From a virus, in UHGV virus genome UHGV-0175171: 31,955 nucleotides of DNA; one strand, written 5' to 3'. The notes below the pieces were generated by a model. That model was given only the letters and a program-made list of their open reading frames with translations, did not search any database and was not told the DNA's origin. This document shows, one piece after another, positions 1,875-14,781 of the stretch; the first letter of the stretch is position 1; the number at the start of each line of letters is the position of its first letter. Position numbers and translations under genes: made by a program.

Positions 1875-2192
1875 ATGATACTAATAAAAACCGAAGACAG
1901 AAAATCATTCATGCAATACCACTATAGTAACGGGGCCGTCATAACGCACTTCTATACCAGTACTATCTACTTTCATGAACGCGTCCGCGTCATGTATGAG
2001 AAGGCACATAAGCGATTCACCTATACATCAGTACATTCCCGTGACTTTGCATACCTAAAGGAAGAGATGATGTCCCTACCAGATTTCACTCTATGCGGTG
2101 AGGATCAGCTATTTCAGTACTCGCTACTATATGATGTAGATGTGCTACTACCAATTCAGATGGAAATTAAAGAGATTAACAAGTCACGGTGA
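1875..2192 (+). CDS. hypothetical protein (105 aa)
   Basis: ORF with an AAGGA-type RBS 6-7 nt upstream of the ATG; preceded by a duplicated leader element (see findings). No recognisable domain. Confidence 0.45.
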   Translation: MILIKTEDRKSFMQYHYSNGAVITHFYTSTIYFHERVRVMYEKAHKRFTYTSVHSRDFAYLKEEMMSLPDFTLCGEDQLFQYSLLYDVDVLLPIQMEIKEINKSR

Positions 2193-2344
2193 GGGTTTGT
2201 ATCTGGTAAGTCGGGTAGTGTTAGTATGTCGTGTTTCTCAATTAGCTGGTAATCAAGACCAAGTACTTCTACAGTTCCTTTCTTGTAATCAATCTCATAG
2301 ATGTACTCTCCGAAGTTGTGATGCATGAAGTTAATTCCTTTCAT
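2156..2344 (-). CDS. hypothetical small protein (62 aa), convergent with and overlapping the 3' end of 1875..2192
   Basis: ORF with a strong RBS on the minus strand (AAGAGGA, 9-nt spacer, ATG). No recognisable domain; either this or the overlapping + ORF could be spurious. Confidence 0.35.
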   Translation of the reverse strand: MKGINFMHHNFGEYIYEIDYKKGTVEVLGLDYQLIEKHDILTLPDLPDTNPHRDLLISLISI

Positions 2345-2997: not shown

Positions 2998-3501
2998 ATG
3001 AAAAAGGTAAATGACCTAAAAGGAAAAAACAAAAATCTACCACTCGCAAAAAAAGCACTGAAACGTTGGAATACGATTCACAACCGCGTAGCGAGCAACA
3101 AAAACTATACTAACGTCACTATTTGTGATGAGTGGTACACATTCAGCGAATTCTACGAATGGTTCAAAGAGAACTATGTTGAAGATTGGGACATTGATAA
3201 AGATATTTGTGGTTCAAAAGAATATAGTCCTAAGACAAGTATTTTCGTACCACACTTCATCAATCTGATGTTCAGGGATGTGAATAATATTCACGGGAAA
3301 GGTGTTTCAATAACCAGAAATGGGAAATACCAAGCACAAGCAAAATGGAATGGTATTCCCCAAAAATTCGGGACGTTCAACAGTTGCCAGGAAGCTACAG
3401 CAGCATATGAGGCAGAGCGTAAACAGTATCTTTATCAACTATCCGTAGACTATGGTTCATATACAGAGCTAAGTAATCTACTCCGAAAACACTCAAAGTA
3501 A
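2998..3501 (+). CDS. AP2-domain DNA-binding protein (phage HNH-associated AP2 type)
   Basis: C-terminal GVSITRNGKYQAQAKWNGIPQKFGTFNSCQEATAAYEAERKQYL matches the AP2 pattern (GV..-.-G.W.A.I..NG....LG.F...EEAA.AY). N-terminal W-x-R-x-N-x-Y...C-DEW...F-x-W segment is typical of phage AP2 proteins. Confidence 0.6.
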   Translation: MKKVNDLKGKNKNLPLAKKALKRWNTIHNRVASNKNYTNVTICDEWYTFSEFYEWFKENYVEDWDIDKDICGSKEYSPKTSIFVPHFINLMFRDVNNIHGKGVSITRNGKYQAQAKWNGIPQKFGTFNSCQEATAAYEAERKQYLYQLSVDYGSYTELSNLLRKHSK

Positions 3502-3508
3502 TAAAAAA

Positions 3509-3533
3509 GGGCATACATTGTGAGTGTATGCCC
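3509..3533. other. 9-bp perfect hairpin (gggcataca / tgtatgccc) between the AP2 gene and the next gene
   Basis: Inverted repeat with a 7-nt loop. An A6 run lies upstream; there is no T-run downstream, so it would only terminate in the minus direction or act as a processing or regulatory stem. Confidence 0.35.
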
Positions 3534-3567
3534 AATTAACAAAATACATTTTACAAGGATATTTATC

Positions 3568-4044
3568 ATGGCAAGAACACCAACAAAAACAGACAATACA
3601 CCATTTATCAAAATCGCTGGAAACTTTAAAAAGTACAGTGATCTTACACAGGAAGGAAAAAACATAGTACTGGATATTATCAGTGAAAGTGCTGGTGAAA
3701 AGAAATATCCAGCAAAGAAAGCATACTATGTTCTATTCAATTGCACTGAAATTAGTAAGGAAACGGTTAAGTACTGGTTACAGCGTTACTATGCAGAAAA
3801 CTCCAATGAGTCAGCACCAACTGACAGTACTGTGCGTAAGTTTCTAACCATAACAAAAAAACTATCTGTTGCCTTAGTAGATGCCCACAGTAGAGGTGTG
3901 AAGCTTTTCAAGGTGGCTAAAGATGGCATGTGTTACTTATCACCAGTACAGAAGTATACAATCGATAAGATGTATAACAATGGTGCATCGGCAGAGGAAT
4001 TGATTATTGAACTACAGAAAATCATAGATAATAATGCGAACTAA
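3568..4044 (+). CDS. hypothetical protein (158 aa), possible DNA-binding protein
   Basis: Internal ATG of ORF 3520..4044 with an AAGGA RBS; the track start at 3520 is a GTG inside the hairpin. The 3' end overlaps the first copy of the TTCGCATAAT-type repeats. No confident domain call. Confidence 0.5.
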   Translation: MARTPTKTDNTPFIKIAGNFKKYSDLTQEGKNIVLDIISESAGEKKYPAKKAYYVLFNCTEISKETVKYWLQRYYAENSNESAPTDSTVRKFLTITKKLSVALVDAHSRGVKLFKVAKDGMCYLSPVQKYTIDKMYNNGASAEELIIELQKIIDNNAN

Positions 4045-4159
4045 ATGGTTCGCATAATACCCGTTTAGTTCGCATAATAGGGCATAATGCGACTTTTGCG
4101 ATCCTCTGTAACCCTTGGTATGACTGGGTTTGTCAATTATGCGAACCATTATGCGACCT
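4031..4159. repeat. cluster of at least five copies of a ~10-bp motif TTCGCATAAT / ATTATGCGAA in both orientations (iteron- or operator-like)
   Basis: Copies at ~4031-4041 (degenerate), 4048-4059, 4067-4078, 4136-4148 and 4148-4159, plus the related GCATAATGCGAC at 4082-4093; followed by a very AT-rich segment (4160-4225). Confidence 0.6.
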
Positions 4160-4695
4160 TATTATAATTATATTTTTCTATTTGATATTTTAAGTATATG
4201 TAATCGCCATATTATCATATGAAGTGATAATGCTCGTAAACTCGCATCATCACTTAAAATAAAAATAAGGGATAAACTTGCGTTTTTTGCAGTCCCTTAC
4301 GGAACTACAAAAGCACGCCCGGTTTCCTGACTCGCTGTAGCTCAGACAACAAAAGTGATTTGGGTAGTACAGTACTGACTTAAAGTGTTTGGGGTCGGAC
4401 TGACGTCCTAAAGTATTAGTGAGTTCTACGCGTCGCATAGCTCCTTGTCTGGGTCGTTCGCTGTTAAAGCTCACTAAGGTACTCAGGGACTTCAGTACTG
4501 ACATACTATCAATTAAGTACTCCCATGTACTCAAACCCAATGTAATTAATACAGTGTGACGCCGCGAAGACGGAGGAACACGCCACCCGCCGAAAGGCAT
4601 ACTATGAGGAAATGAAAGTGAGTAGGGGAACAGTGTAAACCAATCAGACAAGGAAATAAACTGACCTTTTGCACCTAGATATTACTAATAGAACT

Positions 4696-4731
4696 TTATT
4701 CAAAACACCAGATGCAATTAAAAATCTGGTG
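4696..4731 (-). terminator. intrinsic terminator of the minus-strand cassette
   Basis: Stem caccagat/atctggtg (8 bp, 10-nt loop) followed on the minus strand by TTTTG, immediately downstream of the stop of gene 4747..5343. Confidence 0.55.
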
Positions 4732-4746
4732 CTTGAGGTCTCATGC

Positions 4747-5343
4747 TTATTTGGGAAAGGTAAAAATTTCTTCAATATTCATCTTTAATGATTTTGAGTC
4801 GAGGATTATTTTATCTTTGAGGTCATTGAGACTGGAAATCATCAACTCAGGTCTATCATCAGAGACTACTGATCTAAAAACAATAATACCAAAGGCTTCA
4901 TTATAGTATTCCGTTAATCTGTAAAATGACTCTTTTAATTCTTTTGGATATGTTATTTTCCAACGTGCACATGATGATAGTTTTGATGATAATTCAAACG
5001 TTTCATATATCTGTTTAGATATTTGTGAGGACAAATTCTCAAATTTTGATTCTGACGAACGAACAGTAATGATATCAAAATGCAATTCTTGTATCTTTAA
5101 TACCTGTTGGTCATATTCAGCCATAACAGCGGTTACATGATTAAACCCTGCTTCATTGTTCTTTGTCTGTAGCCAATGAGGGGCTGCTTTGAATGCTTTA
5201 TAAGCAACCCAAGCAGTAAAGGCCGTACTGGATGCACTAATCCAATCCGTGAAACTCCCCCATTCAACATCATTGAAAATATATTTTATCAAAGAGGCAC
5301 CTAAAAGTAGAAAAAGTATTATTTTTAGGGTTGATTTATTCAT
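4747..5343 (-). CDS. membrane protein with two N-terminal TM helices and a helical cytoplasmic domain; paralog of 5355..6065
   Basis: ORF; N-terminus MNKSTLKIILFLLLGASLIKYIFNDVEWGSFTDWISASSTAFTAWVAYKAF shares the inter-helix motif (F/V)EWGSFTDWISASS with the adjacent gene. Confidence 0.6.
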   Translation of the reverse strand: MNKSTLKIILFLLLGASLIKYIFNDVEWGSFTDWISASSTAFTAWVAYKAFKAAPHWLQTKNNEAGFNHVTAVMAEYDQQVLKIQELHFDIITVRSSESKFENLSSQISKQIYETFELSSKLSSCARWKITYPKELKESFYRLTEYYNEAFGIIVFRSVVSDDRPELMISSLNDLKDKIILDSKSLKMNIEEIFTFPK

Positions 5344-5354
5344 TGTCTAATGCC

Positions 5355-6065
5355 TTAAAAATAAATGAAAAGTGTATTTAATGCACGATTATTTGAAAAA
5401 ATGTAGGTTTTGGCTTCTGATAGATGCGTTGATAATCTAATTGTATTAGGGATTAAGCTATCAAAAGTGTTATACATCTTGCGTCTTACGTGGTCAAACT
5501 CAGACATTTTTAAACCCCGCAATAAAGCTATTATATTACTAATGTGTCGAATTAATAATTCGACGGTATTTGTGACCGCAGTACATATTTTTTCAAATTC
5601 AGATGTAGGCTTGTAACGAAATAACTTCATTACATTAATGTCATTTTCTAACTGCTGAGATGTAACTTCCAACTCAGTAATGGCATCAAGTAAATATGCT
5701 TGCATTGACTCTAAAACAGAGTCTTTAAGATGGTGATCATATCCATTAACTCTATGCCTATAGTTTTTTAGTTTGAATTCAATTTTCTCAATAGTAATGA
5801 ATAGTTTTGGGTAATGCTGTGTAATAATTTGTTTTTGCAGCAAGTAAGCATCATCTCTATATTTGTCTTTTTGCCAACGAGAGTAGACATAGAATGCAAA
5901 AATCAAAGTGATAATACTGGAACTTGCACTGATCCAATCGGTGAAACTACCCCATTCAAATCCCTTACTACCAGAAAATAGAATCTTAACGAGAACTAAG
6001 ATAGCTACAAATAAAAGTAGCGAGACTAGGCCAATAAGGGTAGTGTTTGCAATTTTAATATTCAT
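5355..6065 (-). CDS. membrane protein with two N-terminal TM helices and a helical cytoplasmic domain; paralog of 4747..5343
   Basis: ORF; motif GFEWGSFTDWISASSSIITLIFAFYVY. Its start overlaps the stop of the upstream gene (ATGA at 6062-6065), suggesting translational coupling. Confidence 0.6.
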   Translation of the reverse strand: MNIKIANTTLIGLVSLLLFVAILVLVKILFSGSKGFEWGSFTDWISASSSIITLIFAFYVYSRWQKDKYRDDAYLLQKQIITQHYPKLFITIEKIEFKLKNYRHRVNGYDHHLKDSVLESMQAYLLDAITELEVTSQQLENDINVMKLFRYKPTSEFEKICTAVTNTVELLIRHISNIIALLRGLKMSEFDHVRRKMYNTFDSLIPNTIRLSTHLSEAKTYIFSNNRALNTLFIYF

Positions 6066-6613
6066 AATTTATCAGCTATGTTAATTTCACTATAGAGTAA
6101 GTCTTTCAATTTAATCAAAGCTTCCCAAATTTCAGTTGGCTTATTGCTGCAATTTCTTAGTAATATTTCATCATTTTCATATTTACTCAATGATGGATCA
6201 TAAAACCGTGTTCCTAATTCTTGAAAATCATTGATAGCATTAGTAACCGTCCAAATCGCATCATGCATTTGTGGTGTCATGTATAATGTATAATCAAGAA
6301 GGAAGTCACTTGCTTTACTTTTAATTAAATCCTGTTTATAAAGCATAATTTGATCTAAAAGATCACCATCATCATAAAAATTAAAATTTGCTGGAAGATT
6401 CAGGGAATTAATGAACTGAATGAAAGGTTTAATAATTTGCTTTTTTTCTTTCAATTCATCTTCGAGTACTTTGAATAATAGTTGCTTTTTAATCTTTTCG
6501 TTTTCAGATTTTTTAGTGATGAGTTGACTTGCCAATGTTACACCCGCAGCTATTAAAGCACCGCCTAAAGTACCGCCGACTGCAATGAGTTGTGTAATGG
6601 TTTCAGCTTCCAT
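6062..6613 (-). CDS. membrane-anchored protein (one N-terminal TM helix, helical soluble domain), unknown function
   Basis: ORF; N-terminal ITQLIAVGGTLGGALIAAGVTLASQLI hydrophobic segment followed by a KE-rich helical region. Confidence 0.55.
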   Translation of the reverse strand: MEAETITQLIAVGGTLGGALIAAGVTLASQLITKKSENEKIKKQLLFKVLEDELKEKKQIIKPFIQFINSLNLPANFNFYDDGDLLDQIMLYKQDLIKSKASDFLLDYTLYMTPQMHDAIWTVTNAINDFQELGTRFYDPSLSKYENDEILLRNCSNKPTEIWEALIKLKDLLYSEINIADKL

Positions 6614-6680
6614 GATTTTAGAAATCCAATATATAAACGTGAAAAAAGAATTTTACCATAATAACCAATTTGACGTAAAC

Positions 6681-6757
6681 TATCAGCGATATCCCCCTCC
6701 CATAAAGGGTAGGTGGTTTGTTTAGTTTGTTGGTGTGTGAGGGGGATATCGCTGATA
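6681..6757. repeat. perfect 19-bp inverted repeat (TATCAGCGATATCCCCCTC ... GAGGGGGATATCGCTGATA) with a 39-nt G/T-rich spacer
   Basis: Read directly: arms at 6681-6699 and 6739-6757. A second hairpin (gtgctgc/gcagcac, 6761-6780) follows immediately. Confidence 0.7.
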
Positions 6758-6820
6758 GAAGTGCTGCCAGTTAGCAGCACTGAGTAATGTATGGTGGGTC
6801 TGCGTTAGTACACTTAACGT

Positions 6821-6846
6821 TTGGTTATGGTTATGGTTATGGTTGA
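6821..6846. repeat. hexamer tandem repeat (GGTTAT)x3 + GGTTGA
   Basis: ttggttatggttatggttatggttga read directly, ~20 nt downstream (in coordinates below) of the stop of gene 6864..7778 on the minus strand. Confidence 0.7.
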
Positions 6847-6863
6847 GATTGACTCAATATATT

Positions 6864-7778
6864 TCAGCAGTTTCTTACGATTCTATCGTATCGTTCTACA
6901 AAAGTTATTATTTTCAACTGATCTTGATTATATGTATCAACCCATTTCTTCATAGCATCTTCTATTATGTAGAGAAAATCAACAAGGTTAAAGTAGGTCG
7001 TATCCCCAATAGTGGTTGTCTTAAATGAATTTCTTTGATGTATTGCAAAACTAATTCGTCTCACCTTCTCTTGTTTTACTTTCTGACTATCAAGATTAGA
7101 CATATGTATTAATGAATTGCGGAGTTCCCAAAGCTCATCAGAAGTAACTTCCAAAGAAGATAAATCTGCATAGGTGTTAAGCCATTTTGTAAAGTTATGG
7201 TGCTGACCAAAATCAACCCAGGCAATTGTATCAATGAATGAAAAAAGTAACTTTATGCAGCTTAAGTAATGTTTATTATTAAATAGATAGTGAATTGGTT
7301 CAAAATGATCATCCTTAAGAAGTTGAGCCATGTCAAAAGTATTACCGACATAGTATTTTGAAAGATAATCATTATGATTTGAAAATTCGTATCCTGAGAA
7401 TTTATCAATATGATGTTGACGAAGTGGTTCAAAATCTAAACGATGTTGGTTCATTATTTTACCGTTCTGGATTGGGGTAATCAAATGTAAGCAGTCATCA
7501 CCAAGATTATAAGGTGCTAAAACATCAGAGAAAATTAAAGTCAAATTGTCTGTACGCATCATTGCATTAATTTTTGCTAATGAAACTCCATTTTCTTTAT
7601 CTTTGATTTCTTGTGGAATATCACCAAAATTTGCATCTGAAAGGTCAAGGCCAACTTTAGATAAGAGGAAATGACACATTTCCTCTTCTGTTCCTGAATG
7701 CTCATACAGTACAAAAGCAACATGTGTTATTAAATCATCAGTTGCGAAGTAATATAAGTTAAGAAGTTTATGTTTCAT
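6864..7778 (-). CDS. hypothetical protein with an R-N-x3-H (HEPN-like) motif; candidate abortive-infection or RNase-type effector
   Basis: Start moved to the ATG at 7778 (GGAGGA RBS, 5-nt spacer); the track start at 7790 is a GTG. Motif ELRNSLIHM at residues ~220-225 fits the HEPN R-[N]-x3-H signature. No other domain recognised. Confidence 0.5.
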   Translation of the reverse strand: MKHKLLNLYYFATDDLITHVAFVLYEHSGTEEEMCHFLLSKVGLDLSDANFGDIPQEIKDKENGVSLAKINAMMRTDNLTLIFSDVLAPYNLGDDCLHLITPIQNGKIMNQHRLDFEPLRQHHIDKFSGYEFSNHNDYLSKYYVGNTFDMAQLLKDDHFEPIHYLFNNKHYLSCIKLLFSFIDTIAWVDFGQHHNFTKWLNTYADLSSLEVTSDELWELRNSLIHMSNLDSQKVKQEKVRRISFAIHQRNSFKTTTIGDTTYFNLVDFLYIIEDAMKKWVDTYNQDQLKIITFVERYDRIVRNC

Positions 7779-7790
7779 AAGTTCCTCCAC

Positions 7791-14781
<6,991 letters not shown>

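Follow-up and report, generated by a model that had tools for sequence, protein, structure and literature searches.

What does a phage keep in a stretch of its genome where no protein is encoded? The question is raised by UHGV virus genome UHGV-0175171, whose 31,955 nucleotides, taken as a whole, are referred to here as the window. A first-pass annotation made from the letters alone had flagged positions 4300–4660 as a GC-rich, non-coding segment with repeated motifs and had proposed that it holds a structured RNA or a binding-site array. Comparison with related prophages indicates that this segment is a real block, but that the element to which it belongs is larger, ~500 nt long (~4175–4670), with the segment covering its center and 3' portion; the element is preceded in order by a small protein gene, a set of iterons and an AT-rich box. 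It is very probably a genuine, conserved, structured non-coding element. Synteny, the lack of a conserved open reading frame (ORF) and compensatory base changes all favor the structured RNA that had been proposed, whereas the array turned out to lie upstream, in the iterons at 4049–4156.

The composition and repeats reported for the segment could be reproduced. Its GC content is 46.0%, compared to 37.7% for the whole window and 34–36% for the flanks, which corresponds to the 97th percentile of 361-nt windows. The decamer CAGTACTGAC occurs twice, at 4370–4379 and 4493–4502, one base off the positions first given; GTACTC occurs three times (4479, 4517 and 4527); and TCGCTGT..AGCTCA occurs at 4332/4339 and again 126 nt away at 4458/4468. 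Elsewhere in the window, TCGCTGT and AGCTCA are each found 0.02 times per 361 nt and GGGTCG 0.00 times. AAAGT is present four times in the segment (0.73 expected) and ACTTT not once. The TCGCTGT..AGCTCA repeat corresponds to a family-wide motif, UCGC-N-GCUC, with at least three copies. The absence of a credible ORF was also upheld: the sole long ORF (4250–4651, minus strand, 133 aa) is not conserved in relatives, and in the homologous regions of 15 relatives the longest stop-free stretches measure 43–88 aa, on varying strands and in varying frames.

Scans for sequence patterns and searches anchored on the protein yielded homologous loci (numbered with the prefix L) from IMG/VR contigs, one metagenome contig and at least 20 assemblies reached through 37 homologue clusters of the protein encoded upstream. 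The same layout was found in at least 25 distinct Enterobacteriaceae serine-integrase prophages, which contradicts the possibility, allowed for in the first-pass annotation, of a sequence restricted to a single genome. The assemblies found via homologues of the upstream protein belong to Escherichia, Enterobacter, Klebsiella, Serratia, Citrobacter, Raoultella and Kosakonia. In every locus the order is protein gene, array of 10–14-bp repeats, AT-rich −10-like box, gene-free structured region of 250–500 nt and variable genes; every fetched homologue of the upstream protein is followed by a gene-free stretch of 420–700 nt with iterons, AT box, hairpins and motifs in the same order. A related prophage of E. 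coli N61 has a homologous gene-free block in the same place, behind different upstream repeats. Conservation is far higher in the RNA modules than in what adjoins them: the leaders of the window and L058 are 76% identical over 365 nt, the adjacent proteins 21%. Other searches yielded little. A scan of species-representative genomes for exact patterns returned only an unrelated insertion sequence (IS) element in one metagenome-assembled genome, a metagenome scan gave one true match (L031) and two chance matches, and viral contigs searched with a single protein for close relatives gave nothing, while an alignment-based search added one locus.

Comparison among these prophages for compensatory changes, a check suggested at the outset, showed that the hairpins are maintained by such changes. 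In hairpin P1, which occurs with seven different stems, complementarity is never lost: 47 of 47 cells are paired across 11 sequences, with compensatory changes in 11 cells; its covariation score was reached by none of 500 shuffles, and slid controls were 15–49% paired. Hairpin P2 has 90% of its cells paired, with U-A/U-G and A-U/U-A changes, and P1 and P2 taken together are 95% paired on eight sequences (0/500 shuffles). Using a strand-symmetric helix finder, the arms of hairpins H0, H1 and H2 were seen to be replaced wholesale yet to remain complementary, with retention of the loop motifs. RNAalifold run on plain MAFFT alignments did not recover the covarying hairpins because of register shifts, and hand-registered alignments were therefore used.

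These observations bear on whether the block could be the functionless remains of decayed genes. In favor of decay, the window lacks the + strand ORFs found behind the element in relatives, and homologues of two of them are found rearranged at 1875–2344. Decay is nevertheless extremely improbable, given a block that persists across several genera with no conserved frame, with compensatory changes and near-invariant motifs, in homologues that are not recent copies of one sequence (71–86% identity, mosaic structure).

Modular anatomy of the element

The features of the element and its surroundings are listed in Table 1.

Table 1. Positions in the window of the element, its parts and neighboring features (RBS, ribosome-binding site).
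Feature	Positions	Strand	Remarks
Gene-free stretch	4045–4746
Hairpin H1	4222–4255	+	Loop motif CTCGTAAACTCG (also given as CUCGUAAACUCG); family motif CUCG-N-CUCGC
Hairpin H2	4280–4318	+	GCGUUUUUU...AAAAGCACGC, variable distal stem; A-rich linker before H2
Motif M2	4330–4347	+	ACTCGCTGTAGCTCAGAC; family consensus ACUCGCUNUCGCUCAGAC
Linker, AAAGU-rich	4352–4396	+	Carries CAGTACTGAC at 4370–4379 (also CAGUACUGAC); ends in UUUGGGGUC
Hairpin P1	4397–4408	+	GGAC-UGAC-GUCC, then UAAAGU
GUGAGU element and hairpin P2	4419–4443	+	GAGUU...AGCUC, conserved loop CUACGCG(G)UCG
Near-invariant 27-mer (motif M3)	4451–4477	+	GGGTCGTTCGCTGTTAAAGCTCACTAA; mini-hairpin GCU-GUUAA-AGC
Variable insert	4478–4550	+	GTACTC three times and second CAGTACTGAC (4493–4502)
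3' domain	4551–4627	+	GNRA-capped HP3 (GCC-GAAA-GGC, 4589–4598)
Tail	4628–4670	+	Conserved with N61 (..AAATAAACTGRCCTTT); end of conserved block
Hairpin CACCAGAT..ATCTGGTG	4706–4731		U-run on minus strand; terminator of convergent minus-strand accessory cassette; conserved in N61
ORF158, small all-helical protein gene	3568–4044 (ORF 3520–4044 if read from GTG)	+	Presumed binder of downstream repeats
Iteron/operator array	4049–4156		Five sites, both orientations
Iterons TTCGCATAAT	4049–4058, 4069–4078
Iteron ATAATGCGA	4084–4092
Inverted iterons ATTATGCGA	4136–4144, 4148–4156
AT-rich −10-like box TTATAATTATA	4162–4172	+	Abuts last iteron; putative rightward promoter
Leftward intrinsic terminator, hairpin and U-run	3509–3533	minus	Just 5' of RBS of 158-aa gene
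Integrase	23–1738
Small ORFs			Between integrase and HNH/AP2-type gene
RHH protein	2782–2940
HNH/AP2-type protein gene	2998–3501
Accessory genes, four	4747–7790	minus
Small and large terminase, portal, capsid, tail and lysis genes		nearly all +	After accessory cassette

The 5' modules vary in sequence and keep their form. The arms of H1 differ completely between subtypes, for example AAGATCAAA/TTTGATCTT versus AAGGTCAAA/TTTGACCTT, yet they stay complementary and the loop motif is kept. H2 was found in 16 sequences with replaced distal stems, and in N61 an unrelated sequence still forms a hairpin. M2, the first copy of the TCGCTGT..AGCTCA repeat, is kept in nearly all members. The CAGTACTGAC/CAGTACTG motif recurs just after M2 in many relatives (L042, L047, L075, L080, L090 and L098) and is displaced by ~20 nt in the window.

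Farther 3', the 27-mer is nearly identical in the window, N61, L011, L019, L023, L031 and L058 despite very different flanks; only its R position varies (A/G), L024 deviates, and a variant form, GGGCUGUUGAAGCCC, makes a 5-bp stem. The insert that follows is common to L058 only, as is the CAGTACTGAC copy at 4493, and is absent or different in N61 and L031. Within the 3' domain a 32-nt block (4596–4627) is identical to N61, and eight members retain HP3, though its stem and loop sequences differ among them. The GUGAGU element is complementary to the CUCGC/CUCAC motifs, and an alternative pairing between them is possible. The family is mosaic, and some members lack the P1/P2/27-mer core and pass straight to the 3' domain. 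The H2-M2 module is duplicated in L098, L059 has several (~3) copies of a AGTACTATCAAAGTAAT unit, and in L090 the RNA is truncated at P1 by a terminator. Such natural duplications, expansions and truncations should help to decide which parts are essential.

No described RNA family was matched. The covariance-model search that had been suggested returned no Rfam 15 match at the gathering threshold anywhere in the window (RNAI, C4, IsrK, 6S, ROOL, GOLLD, HEARO, RNase P and riboswitches included), only noise at permissive settings in 3900–4900 (E ≥ 2.8), and no match in the leaders of 12 homologous loci. Two further classes were rejected: tRNA/tmRNA, with no gene called by ARAGORN in the window, and a protein-coding gene, the 133-aa minus-strand ORF being unique to the window and no frame being conserved in homologues. 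A lambda-type boxA (YGCTCTTTAACAA-like) was not found on the + strand of 4175–4670 with up to three mismatches. One minus-strand match with three mismatches lies at 4461–4473, and the window-wide count at that threshold (15 found, 22.7 expected) is not significant; at the same position the 27-mer, read on the minus strand, contains CUUUAACA, which equals 8 nt of rrn boxA. A literature search for the element's motifs and 13-mer gave nothing relevant. The element is a new RNA family. Promoter-proximal structured phage RNAs are already known as a kind; the size, modular build and repeated motifs of this one, and its pairing with an iteron array, have not been described.

One of the features first noticed, the GTACT motifs, proved to be present but mostly not specific to the block. 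Across the whole window no hexamer is more frequent than AGTACT (57 versus ~11 expected) and no octamer more frequent than CAGTACTG (19 versus ~0.4 expected), and GTAC is found 215 times where ~111 would be expected; the flagged segment is a ~5-fold local peak of this phage-wide palindrome excess. Examples lie at 3825, 9076, 13445, 25041 and 30528. Intragenic copies of CAGTACTG fall in two reading phases (8 and 9 sites) and never in the third, which points to selection at the DNA level. Related prophages (L003, L019, L023 and L035) share the excess, 4–10 fold for AGTACT or 2–3 fold for GTAC, and the E. coli flanks are depleted in these motifs. In L023 a DNA methyltransferase-like protein is encoded directly after the RNA.

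The element might instead act as DNA and give rise to no functional transcript, either as an array of protein sites or as single-stranded DNA hairpins that serve in priming or packaging. The palindromes AGTACT and CAGTACTG cluster in it and are in excess throughout the genome in two or more reading frames, the helices show G.T and A.C oppositions equally often, and the element adjoins the iterons. We consider such a role quite improbable. Double-stranded sites need neither compensatory stems nor variable loops, GNRA-type loops and hairpins containing Shine-Dalgarno sequences fit an RNA, and a cos site would be expected ahead of the small terminase gene, at a distance of ~3.5 kb.

The upstream protein, the adjacent repeats and the direction of transcription

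The 158-aa protein is modeled as all-helical, and fold searches returned weak SANT/Myb-like matches together with uncharacterized phage proteins. The same searches with this protein gave no winged-helix Rep fold and no detectable match to Q proteins. The iterons change with the protein subtype (CTTCGCAAGATGG, TTCCATTAATGGAA, TTCCGATAATGGAA, TAATTCGGGT, ATAACCGTAAC). At least seven iteron specificities were distinguished (the window versus L002, L034–L059 and L073–L101), each array abutting the same AT-rich box, and the subtypes amount to a natural specificity-swap series.

Every locus has an equivalent of the −10-like box (TATAAT, TATATTAATATTA or TATATAGTA) in the corresponding position. Because the spacer and −35 region of the putative promoter are overlapped by the final two repeats, the 158-aa protein probably gates it. 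Three observations support rightward transcription: this box, the coupling of HP3 to the RBS and ATG of + strand ORFs, which abut or lie within HP3 in L034, L037, L042, L050, L054, L058 and L059, and + strand terminator-like hairpins, identified by eye, which end the element in L054 and L090. In the window, the hairpin at 4706–4731 is likely to stop the rightward RNA, a + strand role that we infer, as we do the promoter, strand and function of the element.

Leftward transcription must also be considered. The terminator just 5' of the protein gene has a 9-bp stem and the tail TTTTTTATTA, and its A-run and covarying hairpin were present in 12 of 12 relatives inspected, at the same position in L002 and L035–L059. 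Its conservation suggests a leftward transcript antisense to the 158-aa gene, for which no promoter was found. Near the presumed + start, N61-type members alone carry a small H0 hairpin with a U-tail on the minus strand. A sense/antisense arrangement may exist; a minus-strand sigma-70 promoter, sought by eye, was not convincingly seen. Folding of both strands, which had also been suggested, gave energies that pick no strand. The sub-segment 4280–4680 of the window has a z-score of −2.8 on the + strand and −1.6 on the minus strand.

Candidate functions in the prophage

The window represents a prophage of ~33 kb. Positions 4000–4750 (751 nt queried) are 100% identical to the chromosomes of E. 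coli FDN-24 and FDN-9, in which a large serine recombinase has inserted the prophage in ybhA. No cultured phage has a capsid protein more than 34% identical to its own, a blastn search of the INPHARED phage collection gave no match, and the lineage is one of uncharacterized small (~33 kb) serine-integrase phages. Downstream of the accessory cassette, the packaging and structural genes are all on the same strand as the element (+). No recombination gene, N- or Q-like antiterminator or CI/Cro-type gene was recognized in the whole prophage (the window and L032, 1–10700), nor was an initiator, helicase, primase or polymerase recognized in the 33 kb. These absences make the element, the protein and the array together a leading candidate for the control or replication module that is missing from the lineage.

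Several further observations concern the prophage itself. The large terminase seems split into ORFs 8706–9158 and 9208–10620 (150 and 470 aa), compared to a single ORF of 631–639 aa in L019 and L003, and the FDN-24 copy has an IS3 in its head/tail region that is not in the window; the prophage may be defective. It has a weak match to a 3TM GTA-type holin, under the Pfam cut-off, and carries a SegE-like GIY-YIG endonuclease. At its right end, a full-length pyridoxal phosphatase (ybhA-like) gene adjoins the disrupted host ybhA. The accessory cassette beside the RNA looks like a variable defense or moron hotspot. Its genes at 4747–6065 (minus strand) encode paralogous membrane proteins with the motif EWGS(F/V)TDWISA (compare L019, L023, L042 and L054), relatives of which match Pfam PF24838 (8xMP), and in N61 the hotspot additionally holds a SMODS-SLATT pair. 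ORFs 1875–2192 (+) and 2156–2344 (minus) are convergent and overlap, between the integrase and HNH genes (region 1739–2781), in a stretch left unannotated by PGAP in FDN-24. Their homologues in N61 lie 3' of the RNA, both on the + strand (from ~8319, and 8626–8826, of L002), a displacement suggesting that the RNA was orphaned when this region was rearranged or inverted.

The element probably serves to control either rightward transcription or replication. The reading that we tentatively put first, while holding it short of probable, is that of a cis-acting regulatory leader of the antitermination or attenuation type. What suggests it is position, with a controlled promoter on one side of the element and a long operon of the same strand on the other, in a phage without recognized N or Q, together with the coupling of HP3 to RBSs. 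The helical protein would bind the iterons abutting the promoter, and an untranslated RNA would be made rightward over ~4175–4670. In relatives this RNA would be a long 5' leader, followed by small + strand ORFs that vary among them; in the window, where those ORFs are gone, it would stand alone, facing the convergent accessory cassette. It is envisaged as a chain of hairpins (H1, H2, P1, P2, the M3 mini-hairpin and HP3), each kept by compensatory change, with near-invariant single-stranded motifs between them (UCGC-N-GCUC three times, AAAGU, GUGAGU and the 27-mer). Such an RNA could act in cis on its own transcription or translation complex, and could determine whether transcription continues through the morons and the 20-kb late operon that lie downstream on the same strand. 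A switch could arise if GUGAGU paired alternatively with the several CUCGC/CUCAC copies, and the invariant motifs could contact a conserved host factor.

A number of points weigh against a cis-acting, one-strand leader. The box at 4162–4172 lacks a convincing −35 and was not called by a promoter scan, and the leader was not found to contain a terminator of the kind expected of an attenuator. The covariation alignments were guided by structure, by hand. Averaged over 16 leaders, z-scores come to −1.0 (+ strand) and −1.8 (minus strand), and the helices contain 45 A.C versus 23 G.U oppositions, which is unusual for an RNA made from one strand. The conserved leftward terminator 5' of the protein gene indicates some leftward transcription nearby. 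In the window and L054 there is nothing to regulate directly downstream, and the RNA is intact, which argues for a function beyond that of a simple mRNA leader.

Several of these points would be accommodated if the element were the RNA component of a replication origin. The iterons and the AT-rich stretch would form the origin, the upstream protein would bind it, the structured transcript would prime or activate DNA synthesis, and a complementary leftward RNA might control it, as likened to ColE1 RNA II, T4 R-loop origins and the origins of RepA-less mycobacteriophages. We regard this, the main rival reading, as unlikely. It would suit the lack of recognized replication enzymes, and in the window and L054 the RNA persists although no ORF comes after it. 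The five repeats, which run in both orientations, lie beside a stretch of 34% GC (4045–4299), and it is 4049–4215, not the flagged RNA, that resembles an iteron origin, with repeated sites next to the gene of their presumed binder and an AT-rich stretch. G.U and A.C are about equally tolerated, as expected if the hairpins matter on both strands as sense and antisense. The leftward terminators (3533–3509) are found in all loci, with H0 and its U-tail near the presumed + start in the N61 type, and there is precedent for RNA-based prophage origins (PMC7157519). Several findings run counter to an origin. In the interval 4000–4700 there is no DnaA box with zero mismatches (the nearest one-mismatch site is at 4696), and GC skew shows no inflection at the element. 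The protein model is SANT/Myb-like rather than a winged-helix Rep fold, no convincing antisense promoter was seen by eye, and the Rfam RNAI model does not match. Iteron origins normally need no primer RNA, ColE1-type origins are without iterons, and in relatives the 3' end of the element runs straight into RBSs, like an mRNA leader. A hybrid can be imagined, in which an integrating siphophage without recognized replication enzymes uses an iteron-bound protein to gate a promoter whose transcript primes or activates host-driven synthesis under ColE1-like antisense control. Such a hybrid is doubtful; if it is real, enterobacterial temperate phages would gain their first described RNA-based origin.

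The RNA might instead act in trans, as a protein sponge or scaffold or in anti-defense, with UCGC-N-GCUC, AAAGU and the self-complementary CAGUACUG binding a host or phage factor or phage transcripts. Short motifs are indeed repeated and strand-asymmetric, some of them in hairpin loops, the self-complementary CAGTACTG has 19 copies across the phage genome, and in the window the RNA stands alone beside a variable accessory/defense cassette. A trans-acting role is nonetheless improbable. The conserved single-stranded blocks have no complementarity of at least 10 nt to the rest of the window beyond chance, and the sole 10-nt internal pairing (4442–4451 with 4645–4654) is not conserved in N61. GGA motifs, counted by eye, are not enriched, in most relatives the element is contiguous with the RBS of an ORF, and no partner protein co-varies with it except the upstream DNA binder.

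Comparison with known systems

Among the closest known parallels for a cis-acting leader is the put RNA of phage HK022, which is ~70 nt long and has two stem-loops; put/EAR RNAs are processive-antitermination leaders that act in cis on the host RNA polymerase without a phage antiterminator protein. The element resembles them as a structured RNA just 3' of a putative phage promoter, which suits a phage without a recognized N- or Q-like gene and with a long same-strand operon. It differs from put in its length (~500 nt), its six or more hairpins and its repeated motifs, and we know of no sequence similarity between the two. The arrangement also recalls the lambda Q/PR'/6S leader: a small regulator gene, sites at a promoter immediately 3' of it, an untranslated leader, morons and late genes. 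In contrast to the single Q-binding element of lambda, five sites are spread over 110 bp here, and the protein has no Q fold match and the leader no tR'-like terminator that could be found.

With ColE1 RNA II/RNA I the element would share an untranslated, multi-hairpin transcript of ~500 nt in a replicon without recognized replication enzymes and hairpins that could be used on both strands; some members also have a leftward terminator-like hairpin close to where the rightward RNA is presumed to begin. Unlike ColE1, all members have iterons and an adjacent protein of DNA-binding type; the RNAI model gave no match and no antisense promoter was identified. In RepA-less mycobacteriophage prophages a gene-free transcribed region is the replication determinant and there is no initiator gene; these prophages are extrachromosomal, carry parABS and belong to Actinobacteria (Wetzel et al. 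2020, PMC7157519). The context is alike in that no replication genes were recognized in the present prophage, which differs in that it integrates with a serine recombinase.

ROOL and GOLLD RNAs are found in other hosts, typically near tRNA genes and not beside an operator array, and their Rfam models do not match the element. Like them, it is an ornate, prophage-borne non-coding RNA of more than 400 nt that was found by comparative genomics. Structured RNAs of this length with unknown function are rare, and most occur in organisms that are hard to work with. The present element lies in prophages of E. coli, Enterobacter, Klebsiella, Serratia and related genera and is therefore directly testable, and its hairpin-by-hairpin mosaic exchange between phages supplies a natural set of variants for structure-function work.

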